Positions 10,831 to 29,215 of a stretch of DNA of 64,000 nt are shown piece by piece. The notes below the pieces were generated by a model, which saw only the letters and a list, made by a program, of their open reading frames with translations, was not told the DNA's origin and ran no database searches. The translations under genes and the position numbers were made by a program. This stretch comes from a bacterium. Lineage in GTDB: Bacteria; Zhuqueibacterota; Zhuqueibacteria; Residuimicrobiales; Residuimicrobiaceae. Every line of letters begins with the position of its first letter. Position 1 is the stretch's first letter. Where the stretch lies: the NCBI GenBank assembly GCA_029554865.1, contig JAKPUX010000228.1, positions 25,883 through 89,882 of the forward strand, written 5' to 3'.

Positions 10831-12057
10831 CTATTCGTAACGCAATGCTGTGATGGGATCCATTCTTGCCGCTTTCAAGGCCGGGTAGACCCCGAAAACG
10901 AGACCGACAAAAGAGCAGAAAATCAATCCGAGAAAGACCGTCCAGACCGGCACGGCGGCGGGGATGGGGGTGAGGGCATCGACCAGTTTGCCGATGCCAA
11001 GTCCCAGCATGATGCCGATGAGGCCACCCAACTCACTGAGGACGATCGCTTCGATGAGAAATTGCCAAAGGATGTCGGAGCGTTTGGCCCCGACCGACTT
11101 GCGAATGCCGATTTCACGCGTTCGTTCGGTTACCGAAACCAGCATGATGTTCATGATGCCGACTCCCGCAACCAGCAGCGAGATCGAGGCAATGGCAATG
11201 GCGACGATGCGGACATATTTGGTAATGTTGTCGAAGAACCCGGTGATGGTTTCATTTGAATAGATTTCAAAATCATTTTCAATCCCGGGTTTGACCTTGC
11301 GCTGCGTCCTCATCACACCGATGGTCTGCTCTGTGGCGGTTTCAACCAGGGCGGGTGTGGCGGCCTGGACGGTGATGTTGATCGAGCGCTCCTTGCCGTA
11401 CAACCTCGTGAACTGGAAAAAGGGGATCGCTATTCTGTTGTCCTGGCTCTGGCCGAAAGCGCTGCCCTTCTTTTCAAAGATGCCGACTACCTCGAATCTC
11501 CGTCCCATGAGTTTGATGTCCTTGCCGAGCGGATCTTCGAAAGGAAAGAGTTTGTCGACGACATCTGCGCCAATGACCGTAACCGCGACGTTGAGGTCGA
11601 CATCCTCGGCGGTGATAAAGCGGCCTTCAGCGATCTCGAGCCCGTTGTTCTCGAGAAATTCCGGCGTCACTCCGGCGAGTTGGATGTTGGGCAGGGTCTT
11701 GCGATCTTTGTAGCGGAGTTCCGCCCCCCAGTTCCAGACCTCGGCGCCGACAGCTTTGGCTGCAGTCACCCGTTCGCGTACCGCAAGTGCGTCCGCATAG
11801 GTGATGTCCTTGCGGTTGCGGTATTTATCATGGTCATGCGGCCCCATGTTGATCGCCGGAAATTTCTGCACCTGGAAGACACTGCTGCCGAGAGAGCTGA
11901 CCTGCTCGTTGATGCTCTTGCGCAGCCCGGTGATCAGGGATTGCATGGCGATGATGGTCATGACCCCGATGATGATGCCCAGCAGGGTCAGCAGCGAACG
12001 CATCTTGTTGCTGCGAAAAGCGGAGAGGGCGAGGTGAAATGTATCGGTTAATACCAT
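10831..12057 (-). CDS. ABC transporter permease, FtsX/MacB family
   Basis: 408 aa; N-terminal TM, large periplasmic domain, C-terminal FtsX 3-TM bundle ending ...PALKAARMDPITALRYE. Confidence 0.85.
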   Translation of the reverse strand: MVLTDTFHLALSAFRSNKMRSLLTLLGIIIGVMTIIAMQSLITGLRKSINEQVSSLGSSVFQVQKFPAINMGPHDHDKYRNRKDITYADALAVRERVTAAKAVGAEVWNWGAELRYKDRKTLPNIQLAGVTPEFLENNGLEIAEGRFITAEDVDLNVAVTVIGADVVDKLFPFEDPLGKDIKLMGRRFEVVGIFEKKGSAFGQSQDNRIAIPFFQFTRLYGKERSINITVQAATPALVETATEQTIGVMRTQRKVKPGIENDFEIYSNETITGFFDNITKYVRIVAIAIASISLLVAGVGIMNIMLVSVTERTREIGIRKSVGAKRSDILWQFLIEAIVLSELGGLIGIMLGLGIGKLVDALTPIPAAVPVWTVFLGLIFCSFVGLVFGVYPALKAARMDPITALRYE

Positions 12058-12079
12058 CGTTCAGCCTGCATATAAAGAG

Positions 12080-13312
12080 TCATTCATAACGCAAGGCCTC
12101 GATGGGATTGAGCCGGGCCGCCTTGCTGGCCGGATAGATCCCGAAAAAGAGGCCGATGGTGACCACAAAGACCAAACCGAGAAAAGCGACCCACCAGGTG
12201 ATGGCCGCGGGCAAGGGGGTTGTAGCGGCGACAAGTTTGGCAATGCCCACCGCCATCAGGATGCCGATGAGGACGCCAATCGAGCAGATCATCATCGATT
12301 CGACCAGGAACTGCCAGAGGATGTCCGAATTGCGCGCGCCCAGGGCCTTGCGTACCCCGATCTCACGCGTCCGCTCCGTCACGGAGACCAGGAGGATATT
12401 CATGATGCCGATGCCGCCGACGATCAGGGAGATGGCCCCGACGCCGATGGCCACCGCCCAGAGGGTGCCGGTGAGCTGATTGTAGGTATCCAGGAGCAGA
12501 CTTTGTTTGTTGATGGCGAAATTGCTCTCCTTCTCCGGAGTCAGTTTGCGGATACGGCGCATGATGCCGGTGAGTTCGTCTTCGGTCTCCTCAATCAGCT
12601 GCGGAGATTTGGCTTTGACCTCAATGGTGACCCAGCGGCGCTGCGCCCCGAAGGCGGACTGGAAGGTGCCGATCGGGATGATGGCCAGGATGTCCTGGTT
12701 GAATCCCATAAAAGAGCCCTTCTTGCCGAGTACACCGATGACGCGGAACTTACGGCCGCCGATGGTGACGCGCTTGCCGAGGGGATCGGATTGACCGAAG
12801 AGCAGCTCGGCCACTTCACTGCCGAGCACCGCGACGGGCCGGTTGCTGGCGACATCGTTAGCGCTGAAGAAACGGCCGATCTCTGGATCGGCATTGGCGG
12901 TGGTCAGGTACTCAGCGGTGGTGCCGGTGATGCTGACACGCTCGACCGTTTTCTCGCGGTGCTTGATGGTGCGGCTGGTTTCGACTGTCGGAGCCACAGC
13001 CGAGACCGTGCGGGAGAGCTCTTTCACCCTATCGGCCTCGTCCACGGTGATATTGGGCCGGTTGCGGTACTTGAACCAGTCGTCGCCCTGCATGGTCCAG
13101 GGAAATTTCTGGATATAGACCGTGTCGGTGCCGAGGGCGGAGATCTCGCTGGAAAAGGCCTGATTCAGGCCCTGGATCAGGGCGACGATGGTGATCACCG
13201 TGGTGACGCCGATGACAATGCCCAGGGTGGTCAGTATTGAACGCATCTTGTAGGCGCGCAAGGCGTCATAGGCGATGCGGATGCCCTCCCACATGTAAAT
13301 CAGAATTCGCAT
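12080..13312 (-). CDS. ABC transporter permease, FtsX/MacB family (paralog)
   Basis: 410 aa; same architecture, C-terminus ...PASKAARLNPIEALRYE. Confidence 0.85.
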   Translation of the reverse strand: MRILIYMWEGIRIAYDALRAYKMRSILTTLGIVIGVTTVITIVALIQGLNQAFSSEISALGTDTVYIQKFPWTMQGDDWFKYRNRPNITVDEADRVKELSRTVSAVAPTVETSRTIKHREKTVERVSITGTTAEYLTTANADPEIGRFFSANDVASNRPVAVLGSEVAELLFGQSDPLGKRVTIGGRKFRVIGVLGKKGSFMGFNQDILAIIPIGTFQSAFGAQRRWVTIEVKAKSPQLIEETEDELTGIMRRIRKLTPEKESNFAINKQSLLLDTYNQLTGTLWAVAIGVGAISLIVGGIGIMNILLVSVTERTREIGVRKALGARNSDILWQFLVESMMICSIGVLIGILMAVGIAKLVAATTPLPAAITWWVAFLGLVFVVTIGLFFGIYPASKAARLNPIEALRYE

Positions 13313-13324
13313 AGGGCGCCCTTA

Positions 13325-14005
13325 TCAATGGACCGATTCATCGCGCTCGACCATACCGTCGCGCAGGCGGATGATGCGATTGGAGTGTTCAGCGATATAC
13401 TCCTCATGAGTGACCAGAATGATGGTGTTACCCTGTTCATGCAGGCCTTCAAAGATCTCCATGATCTCGTCGCCGGTGCGGCTGTCGAGATTGCCCGTCG
13501 GCTCGTCGGCCAGGATGATCGATGGACGATTGACCAGAGCGCGGGCGATGGCAACACGCTGGCGCTGACCGCCCGAGAGCTCGTTGGGCTTGTGGTGCAT
13601 GCGATCGGCCAGGCCGACCTTCTCCAGGGCCTCCTCCGCCATCTTGCGGCGCCCGGCCGCCGGGGTGCCGTTGTAGATCATCGGCAGCTCGACATTGTGC
13701 AGTGCGGAGGCGCGCGGCAGCAGGTTGAAGGTCTGGAAGACAAAACCGATCTCGCGGTTGCGGATCTCGGCGAGCTGGTCATCATCCATGGTGCTCACAT
13801 TGTGCTGATTGAGCAAATAGTCCCCGCTCGAAGGCGTATCGAGGCAGCCGATGATGTTCATCAGGGTCGATTTGCCCGAGCCCGAGGGCCCCATGATGGC
13901 GATATATTCATTCTTTTCGACATTGAGATTGATGCCGCGCAGTGCGGGGACCTGCACAGTGCCGATCTCGTAAATTTTTTCAATCTTTTCAAGCTTGATT
14001 AACAT
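13325..14005 (-). CDS. ABC transporter ATP-binding protein (MacB/LolD-type)
   Basis: 226 aa; Walker [13 protein letters not shown] signature [15 protein letters not shown], Walker [12 protein letters not shown]. Confidence 0.9.
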
Positions 14006-14015
14006 GCAGGGTTCC

Positions 14016-15260
14016 TCACTTGTTCTTGTCGTCAGTCTCTTTGCCCGCTGCCTTTTTCTCCTTCACCTGGCTGCCATCCTTGAGCAGCCTGGAGATGGCC
14101 TTGTAGCTTCCGGTTACGATCTTCTGGCCTTCGCTCAGCCCCGAGATGATCTCGATGTTGTTGTCATCGCTGATGCCGGTCTTGACCGGCACCGCTTTTA
14201 CCGTGCCGCTGTTGACGACGAAAACCACCTCAGTCATCTCGTCCTTCTCGTCTTCCTTCTTCTCGCCCGACTCGGTGGGCGGATTCCCGGATTTACGCTT
14301 CCCTCCCACATTCCTGAGCGAATCGGCCTTGAGGTCGCGGGCAGTGACTGCCTGGATGGGTACGTTGAGAACCTGGGGGCGGGTCTCGGTGAGGATATCC
14401 ACAGTGGCGGACATGCCGGGGCGCAGCAAGTCGACGTTGGAGGTGATGCCGATCTTGACGTCGAAATTGGTCACCTGTTCCTGGGTCCCCGCCCCGGTGG
14501 TGGTGGCGACGTGGGCGATCTCGGTGACCTTGCCCTGGAAGGTGGTGTCGCGAATGGCGTCGACCTCGATTGTGGTCTTGTCGCCGAGATGAAGCAGTAC
14601 AACCTCATTCTCGTCGATTTCGGAGAGGACCTCCATATCCTTGAGGTTGGCGAGATTCATGATGATATCAGCCTGGAACTGCGAGCCCACCGCGATTTCA
14701 CCCTCCTCCTTGTTGAGCTTGGTGACCGTGCCGTCAATGGGTGAGGTCAGTCGGGTTTTGCCGAGGTCATCCATCGCCTGTTTGAGGGCGGCCCGCGTCT
14801 GGTCGAGGCTGCTCGCCGCCGACTGCCGGGTGGCTTCCGCAGCGTCGAGCTCGGCCTGCGAGGCGAGGTTTTTCCCGAAAAGATCCTTGATACGGGCATA
14901 ATCGGCATCGGCCTTTTTCACCCCCGCCTTTGCCGAAGTGAGTTGCGACTGGATCTGCTCGACATAGGCCGCAAGGCTTTCACGGTCCAGTTCGACCAGA
15001 AGCTGACCCTGCTTCACGGCATCCCCCTCCTTGACGTGGATCTTTTTAATCTCGGCGGAGATGCGGGCAGCGATCTTGATGTCGGTTACCGGCTGGATTT
15101 TGCCCGACCCGGAAACCGTCCGGCTGATATCCCCCCGTTTGACCTCGGCTGAGGTGATTTCGATGACTTCACCGCGGCTTTTACGCAGGTTGACCAGGAC
15201 CATCGCTGCGATGATGGTGACAGCGGCCACAGCGATGATGATTTTCATTTTATTGGACAT
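14016..15260 (-). CDS. efflux periplasmic adaptor subunit (HlyD/MacA family)
   Basis: 414 aa; N-terminal TM anchor, coiled-coil hairpin, lipoyl and beta-barrel regions typical of membrane fusion proteins. Confidence 0.85.
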
Positions 15261-15293
15261 GAGGAGACTCCCTATCAGACTGGCTGGGTTTGT

Positions 15294-16670
15294 TCACAAT
15301 CCGGCTTCGGCGGCGCCCATGGCCGTCTCCAGCCGGGCTCTCGCAATCTTGGCTTCATATTCGGCGTTGACCAGGTTGGCCTGGGCGCGGGTCAGCTCGA
15401 CCTGGGCCTGGGTCACCTCCAACTCCGTGCCGGAACCGACGCGGCGCTTTTCCTGCTGCAGGCGCAGGTTCTCGCGAGCGGCCTCGATGTTCTGCTGGTT
15501 GATCTCGATGAAATCCTTGTAGGCCTCGAGCTGCAGGAAATACTGCTTGACCTGAGCGGTGAGGAGGCGCTTCTGCTCGGCCAGATTCTCTTCGTCGATC
15601 TGGTAGTTCAGTTTGGCGCGCTGTACGCCGGCCTTGTCGGAGAGGCCGTTGAAGATGTTCAGGTCGATCCCCACGCCCAGGGTAGCGCTGAAATCCTGGT
15701 CCAGGTTGCTCGAGAAGACGCGGCTGAGATCCTCGTTAGAACGGCCATAGCTGATGCTCCCCCCGATGCTGGGGGCATAGCGCATCTGCGCCATCTTGAG
15801 GTTGAAGAGGCTGGCCCGGGACTGATATTCATAGGCCTTGAGAGCGGCGTTGTTCTTGATTGCTTCATTAGCGGCATCGGCGAAGGTGATGGCCGGGAAG
15901 ATGGGCTGGCTCTCATCCTCGCGCACGCTGACCGGAATGTCAGGATTGCGGCCGAGGGCATTGTTAAGGTCGGCCCGAGCCGCGTCAACCGTGTTCTGCT
16001 GGTTGATCAGGGTGGAGCGGGAGGAGCCGAGGGTGACCCTGGCCTGAAAGACCTCAGACTGGGAGGAGATGCCGATCTCCATCATGGTCTGGGCGCGCTG
16101 AACCTCCTCTTCGGCCAGCCGGACAGCCTCCTGATAGACCTGTTCAAGCTTGATCGCCTTGAGCAGATTGTAGTAGGCGTCCTTGACGTTGTAGATGACC
16201 ATCTGGCGGGTGTTCTCCATGGTCTGGGCGCTCGCCTGCTTGTTGGCCTTGGCCGACTTGATGCTGTACAGGGTCTGGCCGAAATCGAAGATGTTCTGGT
16301 TAAGCGAAATGCGCGCGGAATGGTTGTTGCGCTCGGTCTGCTCCTGGTAGATCTCCTGCTGGGTGTAGATGGTGCGCCCGGTGACGGGATCGATCCCCGT
16401 GGGCACGTCGGCGATATCAACGCGCGCGCCCTGGATGTAGCGGCCGGTGTTGAAGGAGCTGTTGATCTGGGGCAGCCAGGCGGCGGTGGCCGTGGTGACA
16501 TTGGTCCCGGCGATCTCCATGCTTTTGTGGGCGACGCGCAGGGTGGAATTGTTCTCCAGGGCGATGGCGATGCACTGCTGCAGGGTCAAGGGCTCCGGCG
16601 CCGGCTCCTGGGCGAAGGCGCTGCCCAGACCCAGCAGAATGAGAAGAATCAGCGAAGTGAACTTGTTCAT
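15294..16670 (-). CDS. tolC: TolC-family outer membrane efflux protein
   Basis: Signal peptide MNKFTSLILLILLGLGSAFAQ (start moved to the internal Met at 16670; the ORF extends to 16778) plus two TolC-like coiled-coil/beta repeats. Confidence 0.8.
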   Translation of the reverse strand: MNKFTSLILLILLGLGSAFAQEPAPEPLTLQQCIAIALENNSTLRVAHKSMEIAGTNVTTATAAWLPQINSSFNTGRYIQGARVDIADVPTGIDPVTGRTIYTQQEIYQEQTERNNHSARISLNQNIFDFGQTLYSIKSAKANKQASAQTMENTRQMVIYNVKDAYYNLLKAIKLEQVYQEAVRLAEEEVQRAQTMMEIGISSQSEVFQARVTLGSSRSTLINQQNTVDAARADLNNALGRNPDIPVSVREDESQPIFPAITFADAANEAIKNNAALKAYEYQSRASLFNLKMAQMRYAPSIGGSISYGRSNEDLSRVFSSNLDQDFSATLGVGIDLNIFNGLSDKAGVQRAKLNYQIDEENLAEQKRLLTAQVKQYFLQLEAYKDFIEINQQNIEAARENLRLQQEKRRVGSGTELEVTQAQVELTRAQANLVNAEYEAKIARARLETAMGAAEAGL

Positions 16671-16705
16671 GAAAGGTACTCCCGTTGGAAGCGATTGGTT
16701 AGAGC

Positions 16706-17434
16706 CTATGAGAAGAGGCCGCCCATGGCCGCGGATCCCAGATACCAAAGGACCAGCAGTCCGACCACTAGTGGCCACACTTTTTTAACCTTGAGCCCGG
16801 CGACCACGGCGATGCCGATACAGAGCACGCCGATGTACCAGATGTTGAAGAGGTCGGTGTTCATCAGGAACTTGTAGATAAAGCTCTCCCTGGCCGAGTC
16901 GGGCATGAAAGTGGCCAGGCTGAAGTGGACATTCATGGTCTCCTTGAAGCGCATGATCGGCGCCTTGAGCAGCATACCCACCGAGGGGATGAGCATACTC
17001 AGGGAGACCACCTCGAGCATGTGCTTGTAGGTGGTGGTGCCGCCGAGGAGGGTGCGGGCGACGAAAAGCCATACCCCGCCCATCACGAGAATGACCGCCA
17101 GGCCGCCGATGAGGGCGGAACCGTACATGACGTATTTCATCACCGGGCTGTTGATTCTCTCGATGGCGCTGTCGATCTGCTCCTGGTCCAGGCCGCGATT
17201 CTCCATCTGGGTGACCATCTTTTCGTGCTGCTCCTTCTGGATGGCGGGGGCGATATAGATGGTCATGATCAGCGAAAGCAGCAGCACGAGCACGGTGGGG
17301 GCGATCCAGCGCGGATTTTCACGCACAGCCGCAAAACTCTTGCTCGGGGCCGCAAAGACATTGATAATGCGCTGCAGCAGACCCATGTTGCCCTCACTGG
17401 CGGAGGGGACGCCCGAAGTGGAATACTCTTGCAT
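16706..17434 (-). CDS. Yip1-domain integral membrane protein
   Basis: 242 aa with about 5 TM helices and a Yip1-like topology; function unknown. Confidence 0.5.
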   Translation of the reverse strand: MQEYSTSGVPSASEGNMGLLQRIINVFAAPSKSFAAVRENPRWIAPTVLVLLLSLIMTIYIAPAIQKEQHEKMVTQMENRGLDQEQIDSAIERINSPVMKYVMYGSALIGGLAVILVMGGVWLFVARTLLGGTTTYKHMLEVVSLSMLIPSVGMLLKAPIMRFKETMNVHFSLATFMPDSARESFIYKFLMNTDLFNIWYIGVLCIGIAVVAGLKVKKVWPLVVGLLVLWYLGSAAMGGLFS

Positions 17435-18917: not shown

Positions 18918-19450
18918 TTTTATGTAATTTAGTAGGGATTCCGGCGGCCCGGCAGCCTGAGAGCGGCCGTCAGAGGGTCAGTTATAATGTACAAATTCGG
19001 GGGTGAAAATAAAAGCCAAAAGCGCGAGTACCCGGCTGGTATTTGACCGAAATGGTGTAATTCCAGCCAGATGACCGCGACTGCAGCGAGCGCTGTCCGC
19101 CGGCCGGGGGGAGATGTTTCATGGCCGTACAATGTTTCACCAGAACACGAATGCGGGGGGTGGCGTTGAATAATTGGCTTTAAATCGCCATAAATGATGG
19201 GGTTGGCCGGGATCAGGGTGGCCAGGTTAAATCATTAAATAACAATAGAAGCATGCTGCGTTTGCTCAGCCATTGTGACGGAAATCTCAATTGCCGGTGA
19301 AAAATACGGACGATGTCAAACATGGCATTGAATTTGCGATCAAGCCTGCAGTCCATATTATGCTGGCAATATTGCGGCGCCCGGCTTTCGGGCTGCAAAA
19401 CCGGGTGCGGCACAGGGCCGTCATCAAAAAAGAACCAAATGGAGGCGAAA

Positions 19451-22400
19451 ATGAAGTCATCTCCCATGCTACGCATCTTGTTCGTCCTCGCGCTGATGCT
19501 AGGGGCGGCAGGTGATCTCTCCGCGCAGATTCTGCGCCGTGAGACTGCCGATCCTCTGCAGACGGGCACTGCAAGCTGGATCAAAGTCGAATTCAGCATT
19601 GCCGGAGGCAGCAGGACCTATTTGAACGACAACTTTACCGGCACGGAATTCCGGATCGACCTCAACGTCGACGGTGATGACAATCCTAGTACCAACCTCG
19701 GAGACCTCTACACCCTGCGCGGGCCGGCTGAAATCTATACGACGCCTCCGGGAGTCCCGGGGGGCGCTAAAGATGCGGTCATCTACCTTCCCATCCGCCA
19801 GGGCTCTTCGACCCCATTTCCCTACGACACCGACCTGCGCCCCTGGATCTGGCTGGTCGAGGGCGGCGGTCTGCAGATCAGCGGCCAGAGTGTTTCCGGC
19901 CCCTGGGGGGTGATCCAGTATCCCTCGGTCTACATCGAATGCGATGACGGCATCAGCCCGACCATCCGGCATGCCTATTATTACGATGACGGCAGCGGTC
20001 ATTCCCCCGCCGTGTCCGGTTCGCATGTGGGCAACCAGACACCCTTTGACGGTTACATCGACCGCGTTGATCTGGAGTGGAGCGAGCCGATGAGCTCCTC
20101 CAACGTCACCGTCAATGACCAGATTTTCGGCGGCCTGGGCACGACGATTCACAGTATGGAATCGATCGGCAGCTGGAACATGATCGGCCCCTCCTGGAAG
20201 CGTTTCACCCTTTGGGTGCGTTCCAGCGCTCCGAACAGCGGCATCTCCCCGATCCTGACCTATACCCAGCCTCTCAGCCTCACCGACCGCTTCCGCGAGG
20301 CCTCGACCGGGCAGTATCAGGCCTATGCCGCCAGCCATGCCCGTGCCCTCACAGACAAGGCGGGTCCGGCGATCATCAGCGCCCATACCAAGCGCGCGAT
20401 GCGTCGTCAGCTCCTGGCTGCCGCTCTGGCCGACCGGCGCATCGAGGTGACCTTCAGCGAGCCGCTCGATTTCGCCAGCGTCCAGGGGGTCGATTTTACA
20501 GTCAATACCACCACGGCCAGCCCCAATCCCATCACCGCCATCATCTCGCCGACCTCCACGTCGACCTCTCCGAGTGCGGTATGGGAGTTCCAGCTCACCA
20601 CCCCCTATGCGACCGGAGATGAGGTCGGCGCCATTCAGTATGTGTTAGACCGTCAGGTCACCGACGTCGTCGCCAATTATAATGGCGAATCGTTGGCCCC
20701 GGCGCCGCCCACAGCCCCCTCCAACGGGCCGGGATTGATCATTCCGATCACCGATGGCATCTTCCCGATCATCACCCACGTGCTGACCCACGACGCCATT
20801 CTGCCGGGTGATCTGACCACCGGCGGCACCAATGGCTGGGGTTATCTCGACTATGTCGATGTACTGTTTGACCATGCCATGAACACGGCCCGTGTCAGCA
20901 CTGCCGGCTTGCAGGTGACCGGAGAGGGCATCGTCACCATCGCCGGGACCGGCACCTGGATCGCCCCCAACACCCTGCGGGTGATCCTGACGGCGACCAC
21001 CCCCAGGGTGGCCAACACCGGGCTTATCCCGCGCGTAACCTATACCAATCCGGGCGATCCCAACGGCCTCAACGAACCGGTCAATCTCGGTCTCGCCGAA
21101 GCCCTCTACAGCTCCGACATCACCCTCTCCCCGACCAACGGCCAGGTTGTGCAGATTGTGGATAATGCCGGGCCGGCCATCATCCGCGCCCTGACTGCGG
21201 GGACCAAGCGCATCCGCCTGGTCTTCAGCGAGAAGGTCAACACCTCAAGCTGGCCGATCAACCCGACGCCGGGACTGCCCTCGCCCCTGTTCAAGTGGTT
21301 CGTCGGGCCTTCCAATTACGACGTCTCCGGCATTCAGGTCTACTTCACCGGTATGACCCCCTCCCGCCGGGACAGTATTGTTTATCTGAATCATACGGGA
21401 TTGGCCTGGACCAAGAACGACAGCGGCGCCATCAATTACCGCGCGCAGGGGGTGGTTTGGGATCTGGCCTCCTCGTCGAACGGCAACCTGCAGTATGACG
21501 ATGATGTCAGTCTCAGCGGCACGACACGGCGTCTGCTGGGTTCGGATGTCAAGGTGGAACGCGACAATATCCCACCCATCCTGCTGCGACTCGAGACCGT
21601 GGATATCGATGCGGACGGCAAGCTCGATCATTACCGTTTTTCCTTCGATGATCTCTCACCGATCTATCCCAAGCGCTCATTTGTCCCGGGCAACTGGACC
21701 ATCACCGGGTATGACGGCCTCAAGAGCAACCTCGGCGTCAACCTCAATGTCTACAATCCCGGCTACGCCTACTATCAGCCGAATGCCATCAACGCCTACG
21801 GGGATACGGTCGCGGCCTATGTCGCTTTCAACGAGACCACTGCCGGCGGCCCGGCCCTCACCCCCTACGGTGGAGATACCGGGGATGTACCGGATGTCGT
21901 CGTTCTGGCCAACAACGGCTTTGCCGACTGGGCGGACAACCCGATGGCACCCTTGCCGGTGGGCATCACTCTGGAACGCGACGATGCGGGTCCGGCCATT
22001 ATGAGCGCCAAGACCATCAGCCGTTTCGACGTCGAGGCCTTCATGAGCGAGGATCTCGCCGACTGGTCGGTCTTCAGCTCCGATTTCTTCCTGAACATGG
22101 CCCCCAACGCCAACTATTTCGGCGCCTGGCCGATCAAGGAGGCCAAAGAGGTTATCCCCGGCAAGGTGCTGATCAACACCTTCTTCTACAGCAGCTCCCT
22201 GGGCTGGGATCCCAAGAGCGAGGGCATCCTGCGCTTCGACAGCCAGGGCGTCGTCGAGGATGTGGTCAATCCTGTCACCAACGGCAACATCCAGACCAAT
22301 TGGGTGACGGTGACCAGCAATGCCGCCTGCACCTTTGTGATTCAGCCGGTGGTCTCCGGCGCCCAGGTGCGCGGTGTGCCCTTCGACGTCCAGGTCATCG

Positions 22401-23977
22401 CCCGCGACAAGTACGGCAACGTCGACAGGAACTTTGCCGGTTATCTGACCTTCTCGACCAATCTGCAGCAAAACGAGATCGTCCTGCCCAGCGGTCCGAA
22501 GAAGCTGATCGATGGCATCGGCACCTTCCGTTTCACCAGCTGGGTGAACACCACCGATCTGGTCATCACCGCTTCGATCGCCACGGATGTCTATCCCCTT
22601 GATGCCGCCTCCAGCGGTCCGGTCACTGTGATCGATCCGATCATCGACCAGCCGGATTATCTGACGGTCGAGGATGTACCCGGCGATCAGGGTGGTTTTG
22701 TCACCCTCAAGTGGCCCTTCTCGGCTAACCATCAAGGCATGGGTGCCACGCCGGTGATCAATTACTACGAGATCTTTTATACCATCAAGGGCAGCGACAC
22801 CCTGCACTACTGGCCGCAGCAGATTGCCGCCTACAATCCCTCCGGCACAGGCTCCACGATGATGACGGTTGATTTCCCGGTCGTCACCAGCGACTCGATG
22901 GCCTTCTACGTCCGTGCGGTCTGGGTGCCTCCCACCGCCGCGGTTAAGGGCGGCGCCACCCTCTCGATCATGGCTGCGAAGGCGGGTGATCTTCCCCTGG
23001 TCATTCACACCCTGGGCGAGGAGAGCCCGGTCACCTCGGTGCTCGGCGCGACGGGAGCCTCTGTGGTCTCCGGTACGGCCATGGCCAAGGGGCGGGCGGT
23101 GGACAATATCGCACCGATGGCGCCTGAGCGCATGGTTGCTGCCCGGGAAGGCGCGGCCGTCAAGCTGCACTGGGGCCCGGTCACCAAAGGCGTGAACGGC
23201 ACCCTCGAACGTGCGGGCGCTATCGCCTACAAGGTCTATATGCATGAGACCAATCCCTACTTCAATCCGGATGCTGAGGGAACCCTGCTGGCGACCACGG
23301 CCGATACCAGCCTGATGGTCAACTCCGAGTCCCTGCGTCAGTACTATGTCGTCCGCGCGGTCGACGCCGACAACCATTCCGGCATCTCCCGCCGGGTGGG
23401 CAAGTACGGCTTCAGCCTGATCACGGCCGCCAAGCCGAGATACAACTACATCTCCCTGCCTCTCGAGACCGAAATCAGCGATGCCCGGGAGCTTGCCGAG
23501 GCGATCGGTGCGGGAGTCAAGGTCGTGCTCAGGATCGATCCGGTCACCAACGGCTACAGCACCTACTATCTGCCTGACCTGAACTACCCGGCCACCCCCT
23601 TTGCGCTCCACGAGGGCATGCCGGTTCTGATCCAGGCTGATGAGAGCGCGCCGGCCAGCTGGTTCTACTGCGGCGCAGTCCCTGAAGCGGGCGAGTTCCA
23701 GTTCGCTCTCAACCGGGAGCACAAGTTCAGCTACAATGAAATCATCGTGCCGCTCAACCGCTCGGACATCACCAATGCCGCCGAGCTGGCCGCTGAGATC
23801 GGCGGAGTGGAAGTGCTGCTTAAAATCGGCGCCGACGGCAGAGGTTTCACCAACTACTGGCTGCCGTCGCTCAACTTTGGCAATCCGATGACGCCGTTCA
23901 GCGTCGCACCGGGTGAACCGGTTTTGATCCAGGTCAACAAGACCGCGCCGGCTCTCTGGCCCACGTATACTCGATAA
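19451..23977 (+). CDS. large secreted multi-repeat surface protein (FN3/Ig-like domains and repeated ~200-aa modules)
   Basis: Start placed at MKSSPMLRILFVLALMLGAAGDLSAQ (signal peptide) with GGAGG 6 nt upstream; the ORF track begins at 19313. Three modules open with (D/N)AGPAI(I/M)S/RA; at least two FN3-like segments and one Ig-like segment; C-terminal tandem ~85-aa repeat. Confidence 0.7.
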   Translation: MKSSPMLRILFVLALMLGAAGDLSAQILRRETADPLQTGTASWIKVEFSIAGGSRTYLNDNFTGTEFRIDLNVDGDDNPSTNLGDLYTLRGPAEIYTTPPGVPGGAKDAVIYLPIRQGSSTPFPYDTDLRPWIWLVEGGGLQISGQSVSGPWGVIQYPSVYIECDDGISPTIRHAYYYDDGSGHSPAVSGSHVGNQTPFDGYIDRVDLEWSEPMSSSNVTVNDQIFGGLGTTIHSMESIGSWNMIGPSWKRFTLWVRSSAPNSGISPILTYTQPLSLTDRFREASTGQYQAYAASHARALTDKAGPAIISAHTKRAMRRQLLAAALADRRIEVTFSEPLDFASVQGVDFTVNTTTASPNPITAIISPTSTSTSPSAVWEFQLTTPYATGDEVGAIQYVLDRQVTDVVANYNGESLAPAPPTAPSNGPGLIIPITDGIFPIITHVLTHDAILPGDLTTGGTNGWGYLDYVDVLFDHAMNTARVSTAGLQVTGEGIVTIAGTGTWIAPNTLRVILTATTPRVANTGLIPRVTYTNPGDPNGLNEPVNLGLAEALYSSDITLSPTNGQVVQIVDNAGPAIIRALTAGTKRIRLVFSEKVNTSSWPINPTPGLPSPLFKWFVGPSNYDVSGIQVYFTGMTPSRRDSIVYLNHTGLAWTKNDSGAINYRAQGVVWDLASSSNGNLQYDDDVSLSGTTRRLLGSDVKVERDNIPPILLRLETVDIDADGKLDHYRFSFDDLSPIYPKRSFVPGNWTITGYDGLKSNLGVNLNVYNPGYAYYQPNAINAYGDTVAAYVAFNETTAGGPALTPYGGDTGDVPDVVVLANNGFADWADNPMAPLPVGITLERDDAGPAIMSAKTISRFDVEAFMSEDLADWSVFSSDFFLNMAPNANYFGAWPIKEAKEVIPGKVLINTFFYSSSLGWDPKSEGILRFDSQGVVEDVVNPVTNGNIQTNWVTVTSNAACTFVIQPVVSGAQVRGVPFDVQVIARDKYGNVDRNFAGYLTFSTNLQQNEIVLPSGPKKLIDGIGTFRFTSWVNTTDLVITASIATDVYPLDAASSGPVTVIDPIIDQPDYLTVEDVPGDQGGFVTLKWPFSANHQGMGATPVINYYEIFYTIKGSDTLHYWPQQIAAYNPSGTGSTMMTVDFPVVTSDSMAFYVRAVWVPPTAAVKGGATLSIMAAKAGDLPLVIHTLGEESPVTSVLGATGASVVSGTAMAKGRAVDNIAPMAPERMVAAREGAAVKLHWGPVTKGVNGTLERAGAIAYKVYMHETNPYFNPDAEGTLLATTADTSLMVNSESLRQYYVVRAVDADNHSGISRRVGKYGFSLITAAKPRYNYISLPLETEISDARELAEAIGAGVKVVLRIDPVTNGYSTYYLPDLNYPATPFALHEGMPVLIQADESAPASWFYCGAVPEAGEFQFALNREHKFSYNEIIVPLNRSDITNAAELAAEIGGVEVLLKIGADGRGFTNYWLPSLNFGNPMTPFSVAPGEPVLIQVNKTAPALWPTYTR

Positions 23978-23992
23978 TCAGGAGGGATGGTC

Positions 23993-24949
23993 ATGAAACG
24001 CAAATTCACCTATATTCTGTTCGGCCTGCTGCTTCTCGGCCTGTGCGGGGCGGCCCTGCCGCAGGAACCGCACATCATCGGCGGCAAGTTTCTCAATCCG
24101 GATGGTTCAGTGCCCGCCGGGGGCGAAATCCGTTTCCAGGCCTACCTGCAAAAGTCACCCGGGGACACCAGCGCAGCCAGCTGGTGTTCCACCGGCGGAG
24201 GCTGGAGCGTCGAGGTCAAGCAGACCCCGATGATCTCCTATGCCAACTGGGAGGCCGGCGACACCCTGGTAGTCGTCTTTGAAAATGTCCTGGAAACGAG
24301 CCCCTACTACGGGGCGCGCAAGGTGGTCAAGCATGCCACCACCGAGGATTCTCCGGAATTCGTGGGCAGCATCTCCCTGCCGGTTGAACTCACCACCTTC
24401 ACGGCCGCAGTAAAGAACACCTCCATCAGCGATGTGGTGATGCTGGAATGGCGGACCGTGGGGGAGAGCAACAACCTCGGCTTTGAGGTCGAACGCAGCC
24501 TGGACGGCAAAAACTTCAGCAAGCTCGGTTTTGTCGCCGGCGCCGGCTCGACCAATCTGGCCCAGGGCTATGACTACCGGGATGACCGGGTGGAGGTGGG
24601 CACCTATTTCTACCGCCTCAAACAGATCGACCGCAACGGCTCCTTCACCTATTCGGATATCCGCGAGGTGGAAGTCACGGCCCCGCAGCGCTACGAGCTG
24701 ACGCAGAATTTCCCCAATCCCTTCAATCCGCAGACCGACATCGTTTTCCGGGTCAAGGAGGAGGGCGTGGTGACTCTGAAGGTCTTCGATCTGCTCGGCA
24801 GGGAGGTGAAAACTCTGGTCAACGAGAAAAAGGGCGCCGGCGTCCATCGCATCACTTTCGACGCCCATGCCCTTCCCTCCGGGGTCTATCTCTACAGCAT
24901 CACGATGGGCAGTTTCCACGATGTGAAGAAGATGCTGCTGGTCAAATAG
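23993..24949 (+). CDS. secreted protein with C-terminal T9SS (Por) sorting domain
   Basis: Signal peptide MKRKFTYILFGLLLLGLCGAA; AGGAGG 7 nt upstream of the ATG at 23993; C-terminus NFPNPFNPQT...VTLKVFDLLGREVKTLV...SGVYLYS is the canonical T9SS type-A CTD. Confidence 0.75.
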   Translation: MKRKFTYILFGLLLLGLCGAALPQEPHIIGGKFLNPDGSVPAGGEIRFQAYLQKSPGDTSAASWCSTGGGWSVEVKQTPMISYANWEAGDTLVVVFENVLETSPYYGARKVVKHATTEDSPEFVGSISLPVELTTFTAAVKNTSISDVVMLEWRTVGESNNLGFEVERSLDGKNFSKLGFVAGAGSTNLAQGYDYRDDRVEVGTYFYRLKQIDRNGSFTYSDIREVEVTAPQRYELTQNFPNPFNPQTDIVFRVKEEGVVTLKVFDLLGREVKTLVNEKKGAGVHRITFDAHALPSGVYLYSITMGSFHDVKKMLLVK

Positions 24950-25075
24950 GCGCCGCCGCTGCAGGCGCCGTGAAATCTCCAGGTAGGCGATCAGACGGTC
25001 CCTCCCCGTCTGAATGTCCTACGCAGCCCGGCGTCACCGGATGCTTTCAGCTCCGGCGGCGCCTGAGAGAGCGGG

Positions 25076-25106
25076 ACCCTTCGGGGTCCCGCTTTTTTTT
25101 ATTATA
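25076..25106 (+). terminator. rho-independent terminator
   Basis: GCGGGACCC-ttcg-GGGTCCCGC followed by TTTTTTTTATT. Confidence 0.75.
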
Positions 25107-25224: not shown

Positions 25225-27027
25225 ATGGCTTTGATGAAGAGCATGCGCAACAGCATGAAGACCATTCTGCTTATTCTGGTCTTCGCATTTGTCCTGACGA
25301 TCGTTGTCGATTGGGGCATGGGCGGCTTTAAGAGCAATGCGCCTCAGGGAGTGATTGCCAAGGTCGACGGCCAGTCGATCCACTATGAAGAGTTTTCCAG
25401 CCGCCTGCAGAACGAGCTGGCAGCCTATCGGGAGCAGTCGGGCAGCGATCCCGAGGGCTATCAGCTCCAGCAGCTTGAGACGCGCGTCTTCGACAACCTG
25501 GTGCAGCAGCGCCTTCTCAACGAAGAGGTCAAGGCGGTCAAACTGAATGCCTCGGACCAGGAGATCATCGACGAGATTTTCAACAATCCCCCGCTGGAGC
25601 TGCGTCAGAACGAAGCCTTTCAGGACTCCACCGGGGCCTTTGACATGCAGCGCTATCAGGCCGCACTTAACAATCCCGGCGCGGGTGAGTTCTGGGCCTC
25701 GGTTGAGGAGTATCTGCGCACGACCCTGCCGATGCGCAAGCTCGACAATCTTCTGCGCGCCACCGCCGTGGTCAGCGACCAGGAGGTACGCGCAGAATAC
25801 ATGAAGCGCCAGCTCAAGGCCCAGGCGGAGTATATTCTGGTCCCGGCCAACGATTTTCTCGCCACGGCCGCCAACCCGACTGATGCCGAGATCAAGGCCT
25901 ATCACAAACAGCATGAGGAGGAGTTCAAGGAGGCGGAGAAGCGGATCATCGAGTATGTCCTGCTCAATTTTGTGGCGACCAAAGCCGACTCCCAGGCTGT
26001 CGATGAACAGGCTGCCGAGCTTCTCGCCGAGGCCCGCGGCGGTGCGGATTTCGCCGAACTGGCCCGTCTGAACTCCCAGGATCCGGGTTCAGCCCCCCAG
26101 GGTGGTGACCTCGGTTTCTTCGCCCGCGGCGCCATGGTCAAACCCTTTGAGGAGGCCGCTTTCTCCGGCAAGCCGGGCGATATTATCGGCCCGGTCGCCT
26201 CGCAGTTCGGCATCCATATCATCAAGGTCGGCGAGCGCAAGCAGGAAGAGGGAGAGGAAAAGGTCCAGGCCAGCCATATCCTGCTCAAGTATGAGATGTC
26301 CCCGCGCACCCGCGAGGCCCTGCAGGAGGAGGCCGCCTACATCGCCGAGGCGGCCAAGGAGCAGGATCTCAAGAGCCTCGCCACAGCCGAAAACATCAAG
26401 CTGGAGCGCACCGAACCCTTCGCTGCCGGCGGCTTCATCCCCGGCATCGGCATGGAACCCAGGCTGAGCGGCTTTGTTTTTCGCAGCAAGGAAGGGGCGG
26501 TCAGCGATGTCATCTATGCTGAACGCGGCTACATCGTCGTCCGCGTCGCCGATATCATCCCCGAACACATCAAGTCCTGGAGCGATGCCCGCGAGACCAT
26601 CACCGCCAAGCTGAAAAATGAAAAGGCGATGGAGCTGGCCAGACAAAAGTGCCAGACCCTCTACGAGCAGGCCAAATCGACCGGATCCCTCGCCGGCGCG
26701 GCCGCCCAGATCGGTGCCCAGGTTCAGCAGGCCGCCGATTTCACCTTCTCGAGCTATGTCGCCAGCCTCGGCCGCGAAGCCCGCTTTGTCGGCGCCGCCT
26801 TCGGACTCCAGCCCGGCGCCATTTCCCAGCCGGTCGAGGGGACGCGCGGCTACTATCTGATCAAACTGCTGAGCAAGAACAGCTTCAATGAGCAGGAGTT
26901 CGAGGCCCAGAAAGAGTCGCTGCGCGCACAGCTGATGCAGCGCAAGCAGCAGAGCATCTTCGGGCAGTGGTATACCGGCCTCAAGGAGAAGGCGGATATC
27001 AAGGATTTCCGCAAGGATTACCTCTAG
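25225..27027 (+). CDS. ppiD: periplasmic chaperone / peptidyl-prolyl isomerase PpiD
   Basis: 600 aa; N-terminal TM anchor, long chaperone domain and parvulin-like PPIase motif [21 protein letters not shown]. Confidence 0.8.
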
Positions 27028-27352
27028 GCGCCTGAAGCCGATCGGCGTCGCCGATCGGCTCACCCGCCGTTTCAGCCTGCACAACCATCATGCGGCCCCG
27101 ATGCCCCCGGCATCGGGGTCGTCTCTTTTTACGCCGTACAAGCCTGACTCCCACCTCATTGTCTTCCCGCATGGCAGCACATTCAGCACGCGGGCAGCCG
27201 GCTGAAGACGGCGACTTTAACAGCCGGTTCCGCGCCGCCTTACTTGTGATCCGGGCCAAGATGCCTGACCGGTAAATTTATCACCGGTCGGGAACAAAAT
27301 CCCCGCAGGGGGTGTTACTGTTTTTAAATAAGACTAAAAAAGTCCTATATAG

Positions 27353-27769
27353 ATGTTCAAACTTTCGAAAAAAACCGAATACAGCATCATGGCGCTCCGC
27401 CATCTCGGGCGCAATGAATCGATGACCGCGACTGTCCGGGAAATCGCTGCGGACTGCCGCATCCCTGCACCGCTGCTGGCCAAGCTGCTGCAGCAGCTCG
27501 CCCGGAGCGGCCTGGTCCACTCCTTGCAGGGAGTCAACGGCGGTTACCGTCTCAAGAGCGCCATGGCGGGGATAAGCCTCGCTGAGGTGATCGAGGCCGT
27601 CGAGGGTCCTTTCCGGGTCACCGCCTGCGGCGGGGAAGCAAGCCGGTGCAGCCGTTCCGGTTTTTGCGACCTGCGCAGTGCAATAGCGCCCGTGCAGGGG
27701 CAGATGCTGAGTTATTTACAAAACGTGACCCTGGCCGACCTGCACGGTTCACGGGGCGAAGAGGATTGA
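27353..27769 (+). CDS. Rrf2-family transcriptional regulator (IscR/SufR-like)
   Basis: 138 aa; Rrf2 wHTH N-terminus MFKLSKKTEYSIMALRHLG and C-terminal Cys cluster (CGGEASRCSRSGFC); directly precedes sufB. Confidence 0.8.
   Translation: MFKLSKKTEYSIMALRHLGRNESMTATVREIAADCRIPAPLLAKLLQQLARSGLVHSLQGVNGGYRLKSAMAGISLAEVIEAVEGPFRVTACGGEASRCSRSGFCDLRSAIAPVQGQMLSYLQNVTLADLHGSRGEED

Positions 27770-29215
<1,446 letters not shown>

Follow-up and report, generated by a model that had tools for sequence, protein, structure and literature searches.

A gene pair of candidate division KSB1 appears to split a type IX secretion cargo cassette at an uncatalogued tandem domain

In a 64,000-nt stretch of bacterial DNA (contig JAKPUX010000228.1; the window hereafter), we characterized two adjacent plus-strand genes whose products together match the domain order of single proteins found in other bacteria. 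The large gene (19451-23977, TAA stop at 23975-23977) encodes a Sec-exported multidomain protein of 1,508 aa; a preliminary description of the locus had counted 1,509, and the signal peptide it called was read directly here. The small gene (23987-24949) encodes 320 aa comprising a signal peptide, a ~115-aa domain named PH for its invariant Pro-His, a fibronectin type III (FN3)-like domain, and a type IX secretion system (T9SS) C-terminal sorting domain (CTD) of type A. The large protein ends in two homologous repeats, termed the pair here. In 41 complete proteins from outside candidate division KSB1, the pair, PH and CTD follow one another in one polypeptide; in the KSB1 loci, two genes part between the pair and PH.

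The signal of the large protein (residues 1-26, 19451-19528) reads MKSSPMLRILFVLALMLGAAGDLSA|Q, with an ortholog consensus of ...FAQ and no lipobox cysteine, and cleavage is predicted to leave an N-terminal glutamine. Its ATG lies 5 nt behind a GGAGG ribosome-binding site (RBS; 19441-19445). The small gene has its own RBS, AGGAGG (23980-23985), within an intergenic gap of 9 nt, earlier given as 10, and opens with two in-frame ATGs (23987-23995). The one at 23993, 7 nt after AGGAGG, is probably the true start, giving 318 aa, because its spacing is better and the orthologs likewise start with 'MK..'. Glutamine is the predicted first residue of both mature proteins (…A|Q at 19526-19531 and 24059-24064, and in the ortholog alignments), which fits the signal-peptidase 'Q-rule' described for Bacteroidota. 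No terminator-like site was found between the genes, and an intrinsic terminator (25065-25106, plus strand; a T-run behind a 15-bp stem containing 8 GC pairs) closes the two-gene operon. Given the spacing, the RBS and this lone terminator after the second gene, the two genes look like a single transcription unit.

The preliminary description had placed a T9SS sorting domain on the small protein and none on the large one, and both assignments held. The CTD (residues 238-320, 24698-24946) scores 42.3 bits against TIGR04183 (cut-off 23) and 35.2 bits against PF18962 (cut-off 27) over residues 242-317. It is the best-conserved part of the small protein, whose signal peptide is kept in 18 orthologs; the protein thus combines a sorting domain above curated cut-offs with an N-terminal Sec signal, as type A CTD cargo does. 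In Pfam and NCBIfam it matches CTD-type families only, and not PorP/SprF. For the large protein, neither a type A CTD nor a type B CTD (PF13585 CHU_C / TIGR04131) was matched in these databases at E<=1, and a hidden Markov model (HMM) made from the CTDs of small-protein orthologs found the small open reading frame (ORF), and not the large protein, as its sole match in the window.

The pair consists of repeat 1 (residues 1318-1412, 23402-23686) and, at the extreme C-terminus, repeat 2 (residues 1413-1508, 23687-23974). Their paralogy is plain from Smith-Waterman alignment (score 168 versus 25 +/- 5 in shuffles, z = 28) and from hhalign (99.9%, E 3e-37), and the units, previously put at about 85 aa, measure about 95. 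An AlphaFold2 (AF2) model of the C-terminal 196 aa, made from a 40-row alignment, is confident (pLDDT 92.6, pTM 0.86) and depicts a beta-alpha-beta tandem module that contains a helix. The conserved positions are aromatic or polar (W, F, N, Q), with no catalytic-looking invariant residues. As had been suspected, the repeats fall outside known domains: Pfam and NCBIfam gave no match on the pair of the window and no family recurring across 40 diverse pair segments, the best match among PDB sequences reached only E 0.087, profiles of the whole family and of PH found nothing among those sequences, and the model matched no PDB fold. The repeats had also been checked for the two identities that would have made the pairing unremarkable, a type B CTD and a common adhesin domain; both were rejected, as neither matched in Pfam or NCBIfam. 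The sole high-probability Foldseek match to the model (0.97, TM-score 0.45) is the BFVD entry A0A8D9C8P8, a 587-aa 'putative hemin binding protein' of an uncultured marine phage, whose annotation suggests a CTD-bearing protein; the entry probably reflects a pair-PH-CTD cassette of bacterial origin whose contig was assigned to a virus.

Searching other genomes for the repeat, as had been proposed, uncovered a large family. Word-indexed searches with the repeat profiles gave only 2-3 proteins, and we instead ran a profile of 45 repeat copies exhaustively against 1.84 billion representative proteins, which yielded 585 matches at E<=1e-3 (213 at E<=1e-10), nearly always with two copies. The family therefore spans at least 585 clusters at 50% identity in several phyla, is missing from Pfam and NCBIfam alike, resembles no structure in the PDB, and is new. 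Architectures were mapped in the best 150 of the 585 matches, 141 of them outside the KSB1 family. The pair lies at the C-terminus, or within 40 residues of it, in 86 of the 141, proteins of varied content that include many of 215-245 aa composed only of an N-terminal signal or transmembrane (TM) anchor and the pair. One such small protein, P0149 (240 aa, signal peptide and pair), comes from the EukProt transcriptome of the anaerobic ciliate Plagiopyla frontata, its most likely source being a contaminant or a prokaryotic symbiont. In 41/141, the constant PH domain and a type A CTD come after the pair; two further proteins end after PH and are probably truncated, and one pair-PH-CTD protein has an additional upstream PH copy. 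Eight continue for more than 40 residues past the pair with neither PH nor CTD (in five of these, one from Caldilineaceae, the pair is near the N-terminus of a large-to-giant protein), and three have one or three detected repeat copies. In every architecture found, the pair sits at the anchored end, beside either an N-terminal membrane anchor or PH-CTD.

The link between the fused proteins and the KSB1 operon is the PH domain. BLAST matched the CTD of the small protein to fused-protein CTDs and its N-terminal domain (residues 26-140, 24062-24406, beta-rich) weakly to their PH. Profile comparison made the second match firm: the N-terminal domain from 18 orthologs aligned with PH from 42 fused proteins over 85 columns (hhalign 98.7%, E 4e-16). 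An HMM built from the fused proteins only detected the KSB1 small proteins at E 2.7e-9 to 7.6e-4, that of the window at 1.2e-4, and matched nothing else in a six-frame translation of ~500 kb covering the window and related loci; the reverse HMM, from the KSB1 N-terminal domain, matched 15 fused proteins. Because the N-terminal domain and PH are homologous, the KSB1 operon follows the order of the fused proteins, passenger-FN3-pair and then PH-(FN3-like)-CTD. The large protein ends with the pair and the mature small one begins with PH, and the genes part exactly where the fused proteins have a linker of 20-35 aa. PH lies between the pair and the CTD, or directly behind the pair in the truncated forms, in 44/44 non-KSB1 proteins that continue this way (41 complete, two stopping after PH, one with the extra PH), and among the 141 non-KSB1 proteins listed none joins the pair to a CTD without an intervening PH. 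Likewise, the FN3-like domain FN3b of the large protein (residues 1215-1317, 23093-23401), always immediately N-terminal of the pair, yielded an HMM that matched directly upstream of the pair in all 23 non-KSB1 proteins that it matches.

The two-gene arrangement is lineage-wide. The large protein has 29 full-length relatives of 1,459-1,571 aa (41-91% identity), the few named ones labelled candidate division KSB1 or Calditrichaeota, and a genome scan retrieved 25 related loci, all in metagenome-assembled genomes, whose phylum labels, where given, are mostly KSB1; some of the other labels are probably wrong. Every related KSB1 locus retrieved has one copy of the large gene. In all 19 loci with sequence beyond that gene, the small protein has a full-length ortholog (42-92% identity) encoded next on the same strand after a gap of about 10-140 nt, and in all 19 a stop codon and an RBS separate the pair from PH-CTD and the small gene has its own signal peptide. 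This pairing outlasts the downstream synteny: PpiD comes next in 10/19 loci, and the PpiD-Rrf2-SufB block is kept in about half. In the window, the gene for the PpiD/SurA-like periplasmic chaperone and peptidyl-prolyl isomerase stands just past the operon terminator, followed by Rrf2 and SufB (25225-29215, plus strand). Upstream, conserved divergent genes encode a CCA-adding/poly(A) polymerase-like enzyme, Yip1, and a TolC-like outer-membrane efflux protein (OEP) with its MacB-type efflux system. The complete tripartite efflux operon (10831-16778, minus strand; two MacB/FtsX permeases, an ATP-binding cassette (ABC) ATPase, a HlyD-like adaptor and the TolC-like OEP) keeps its synteny with the locus throughout the clade, and the presence of the OEP indicates an outer membrane and hence a diderm envelope. 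Between the large gene and the divergent CCA-enzyme gene, ~530 nt (18918-19450) are non-coding, an unusual length that may accommodate a regulatory region or a long leader; a sigma-70 consensus scan of this stretch found nothing beyond chance level.

The remainder of the large protein is built from recurring modules, compared by hhalign as slices of a 26-ortholog alignment. Three 'AGPAI' modules of ~110-130 aa, X1 (residues 301-432), X2 (569-702, 21155-21556) and X3 (843-955, 21977-22315), carry the motif at residues 304, 573 and 846 and are mutually homologous (97.6-98.1%, E 1e-12 to 1e-13; X1 with X2 and X1 with X3 97.6-97.9%, X2 with X3 98.1% at E 9e-14). They alternate with a second type, Y1 (166-300) and Y2 (433-568), also homologous to each other (97.8%); Y1, X1 and Y2 together occupy 19946-21154. 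The three modules reported earlier are thus real, with a period that is ~270 rather than ~200 aa because a Y module sits between them. The immunoglobulin (Ig)-like and FN3-like segments noted earlier have weak sequence support: Big_5 (PF13205) matches residues 328-364 at 18.8 bits, under its 23.6 cut-off, and 14/26 orthologs at E<=0.1 (best E 1.7e-7); apart from this sub-threshold Pfam match, neither Pfam nor NCBIfam matched the large protein. Mean pairwise identity is even at ~0.46-0.59 per domain, the exception being a variable linker at residues 1161-1214. Calling the protein a giant repetitive one overstated the case, since it is a multidomain protein whose length is fixed and whose conservation is even. 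The small protein also contains an FN3-like domain of its own (residues 141-237, 24407-24697; 'LPVELTTFTA...YYRLKQID'), present in all orthologs.

Pair genes also stand next to genes for small secreted proteins in other lineages. Among eight non-KSB1 pair-gene loci whose neighbourhoods we examined, five have a small secreted DNRLRE/CBM96 protein encoded directly downstream, two do not, and one contig ended too early. The upstream partner is a subtilase-FN3-pair protein (L160/L162), a DUF6923-pair protein (L033/L034, L036/L037, L158), or a protein of only a TM helix and the pair (L031); in L029, two DNRLRE/CBM96 proteins lie directly upstream of the pair gene. Four of the five downstream partners (L031 8786-9541, L036 7033-7758, L158 7053-7853 and L033 2280-3038) end in 'PTA[VLI][ST]L..F.', then a TM helix and RRR, a tail that resembles an uncurated C-terminal signal for sorting or anchoring; the only NCBIfam hint was a weak CoaP_CTERM one, on a single protein. 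The fifth partner, that in L160, instead has an FN3-like domain, which scores 41 bits against the HMM of its counterpart in the KSB1 small protein, and the LPVELTTFTA opening of the KSB1 domain is related to the PTA motif. Profile comparison of PH with DNRLRE/CBM96 detected no relationship. Three independent loci place the DUF6923-pair and DNRLRE/CBM96 genes inside lasso-peptide-like clusters (L033 194-5474, L036 1-9739, L158 4504-11947) with genes for PqqD, Transglut_core3, Asn_synthase, an HPr-kinase-like protein, an ABC exporter and a ~45-aa ORF. That a pair gene recurs with a small, usually anchored partner, and with different partners, supports a general docking role for the pair.

We suggest that this operon of KSB1, a diderm lineage of the FCB (Fibrobacteres-Chlorobi-Bacteroidetes) group, builds a two-component surface structure in which the pair docks the large protein to its small partner, a reading to which we give slightly less than an even chance. 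In this model, both proteins would cross to the periplasm by Sec, and the small protein would behave as ordinary T9SS cargo, taken by its CTD through the SprA/Sov translocon; judging by other type A cargo, the CTD would then give way to a surface anchor or be cleaved off. The pair would bind the small partner non-covalently, restoring the linear order passenger-FN3-pair / PH-...-CTD that is encoded as one polypeptide elsewhere. The complex could then be exported and displayed via the CTD of the partner, tail first as in the fused proteins, with the large protein, putatively rich in Ig and FN3 domains, projecting outward and the pair nearest the cell. The large protein would thus probably reach, or be held at, the surface via its partner; physical contact, the partner domain contacted, co-export by the T9SS and surface localization are all what we infer from sequence comparisons. 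In favour of such export, the T9SS moves folded proteins, with cargo of up to 6,497 aa (PMC9251779), and fluorescent proteins fused to a CTD are exported (PMC10994853). The 41 fused pair-PH-CTD proteins indicate that the domain content of the partner is non-random, and the pairing in 19/19 loci, retained where PpiD synteny is lost, supports linkage of the two genes.

Several observations weigh against docking. The whole upstream neighbourhood is syntenic across the clade too, so part of the gene linkage could be inherited order. The pair-PH linker of the fused proteins is long and variable, and the two domains therefore need not touch there. A mirror-tree analysis of large-protein against small-protein domains, with the phylogenetic trend removed, gave no specific co-variation of pair and PH (partial r = -0.28 and 0.16). 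Pair proteins of non-T9SS lineages function without PH-CTD, and a literature search found no documented case in which the T9SS exports a protein that lacks a CTD and rides on a partner. Finally, PH is not exclusive to the pair, since T9SS cargo without a pair carries it. We scanned metagenomes with a degenerate DNA motif of the PH core, which gave mostly chance matches and five genuine PH-containing ORFs in three loci. One is pair-PH-CTD, one is PH-CTD ending upstream at a contig end, and the other three are T9SS cargo with PH right after the signal peptide and no pair in the chain, the arrangement of the KSB1 small protein. One of these cargo genes lies directly downstream of a pair-PH-CTD gene, and another within an array of CTD genes that has no pair in its vicinity. 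Such arrays of consecutive type A CTD genes (L050 2-9893, L091 799-6050, L097 8749-11379) in some cases contain signal peptide-PH-...-CTD genes, and L097 is the one in which such a gene follows a pair-PH-CTD gene.

The lack of a mirror-tree signal, the syntenic neighbourhood and the PH domains heading cargo without any pair would all be expected if the two proteins were independent, the products of an old gene fission or of plain conserved synteny, and never touched. The large protein would then be periplasmic, or exit by vesicles or a type II system, and vesicles are indeed a suggested route for CTD-less proteins that occur extracellularly in other T9SS bacteria (PMC6247017). We nevertheless consider independence unlikely, as adjacency on the same strand in 19/19 loci, with short gaps and no terminator, outlasts the downstream synteny, 41 proteins elsewhere fuse pair, PH and CTD, and unrelated lineages repeatedly place pair genes beside small secreted, mostly anchored proteins. 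A 1,500-aa Ig/FN3-rich protein would also be atypical of the periplasm. The previously proposed two-protein surface complex thus gains from the invariant gene pairing, the fused homologs and the recurrent partners elsewhere, and loses from the non-exclusive PH and the mirror-tree result.

The pair might alternatively be a lectin- or carbohydrate-binding module (CBM)-like domain that binds an envelope or substrate glycan, making the large protein an adhesin or a glycan-attached surface-layer protein and the small one a co-expressed protein or one bound to the same polymer. Its conserved W, F, N and Q, lacking catalytic-looking invariants, would suit this role, as would its position in multi-enzyme T9SS cargo such as P0093 (GH31, GDSL), where a CBM usually sits, and the recurrence of DNRLRE/CBM96, a carbohydrate-binding module family, next door. 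We regard it as quite improbable, however, since no CBM or lectin likeness appeared in Pfam, PDB sequences or PDB folds, since membrane-anchored pair-only proteins of 215-245 aa better suit a docking or structural role, and since it leaves the passage of the large protein across the outer membrane unexplained. It is barely credible that the pair represents a T9SS export signal of a new class, with the large protein as direct cargo. The usual C-terminal position of the pair speaks for this, and signals besides type A do exist, namely types B and C (PMC10202324), but such a signal would be redundant in the 41 complete proteins (44 with truncated and variant forms) where a genuine type A CTD comes after pair and PH. 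The pair also occurs near N-termini and in Chloroflexota-looking contexts (Caldilineaceae), and it contains a helix and is matched by neither type A nor type B CTD models. The downstream type A CTDs and the non-T9SS contexts largely rule this candidate out. Identity with the type C CTD (ChiA-like, cl41395) is unlikely for the same reasons, the pair being found upstream of type A CTDs and in Chloroflexota-looking lineages.

Under docking, the complex may serve as an adhesin or an S-layer-like envelope component. The fixed length, single copy per locus examined and even conservation (~50% pairwise identity in every domain) of the large protein, together with its setting among syntenic housekeeping genes, lean towards a structural role, and the protein may belong to the core of the cell envelope in this uncultured lineage. 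Sorting by type A CTDs is already known, as are Ig/FN3-rich surface proteins. What is new is that a cassette of T9SS cargo is divided between two genes throughout the lineage, implying sorting or anchoring in trans. The broader proposition, that this is the first trans-acting T9SS sorting and that the pair is a general, unrecognized device by which surface proteins are fastened to small anchored partners (PH-CTD proteins in phyla with a T9SS, membrane-anchored DNRLRE/CBM96 proteins elsewhere), is rather doubtful. T9SS cargo is defined by its own CTD, and a CTD provided by a separate partner would extend the rules of secretome prediction; if true, it would also provide surface display with a natural design in two parts, carrier and cargo. 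The anchored-end position of the pair and its recurrent small partner genes make the docking function directly testable.

A literature search found no precedent for a T9SS in KSB1, and the nearest parallels come from other organisms and machines. In Tat 'hitchhiker' export, for instance of PaoABC and of hydrogenase small and large subunits, a subunit without a signal travels bound to a signal-bearing partner (PMC4273604). That machine is a different one and works at the inner membrane, and the literature searched held no T9SS equivalent. The TfsA and TfsB proteins of the Tannerella forsythia S-layer are encoded by adjacent genes, and both carry their own CTD. Their display is T9SS-dependent (PMC4175972), and they resemble the putative KSB1 surface proteins in being beta-rich; in its single copy, fixed length and even conservation the KSB1 large protein is like a structural envelope protein. 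In KSB1, in contrast, only the small protein has a CTD, and no sequence similarity was found. In Flavobacterium johnsoniae, the type B cargo gene sprB is clustered with sprF, encoding a PorP/SprF partner needed for secretion or anchoring (PMC10202324). The KSB1 operon shares the clustering of a large, putative surface-protein gene with a small partner gene, but its large protein has no type B CTD, and the partner is a soluble multidomain protein with a type A CTD rather than a beta-barrel.

Closer still are systems that contain the pair itself. The pair and DNRLRE/CBM96 operons (L031, L033, L036, L158, L160) likewise encode a pair protein and then a small secreted protein, although the partner domain is not detectably related to PH and the anchor, where there is one, is a TM helix with RRR rather than a T9SS CTD. 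The fused FN3-pair-PH-type A CTD cargo proteins (P0093, P0118, P0153), unannotated and unstudied, contain the same homologous elements in the same order. They are single polypeptides with diverse enzymatic passengers, P0093 being 2,581 aa with GH31, GDSL and PKD domains. The KSB1 large protein shares their tandem pair without having PH and CTD in the same polypeptide, its passenger is a KSB1-specific array of putatively Ig-like modules, and its partner has an extra FN3-like domain, so that here the elements of one fused protein are distributed over two genes, split between the pair and PH.

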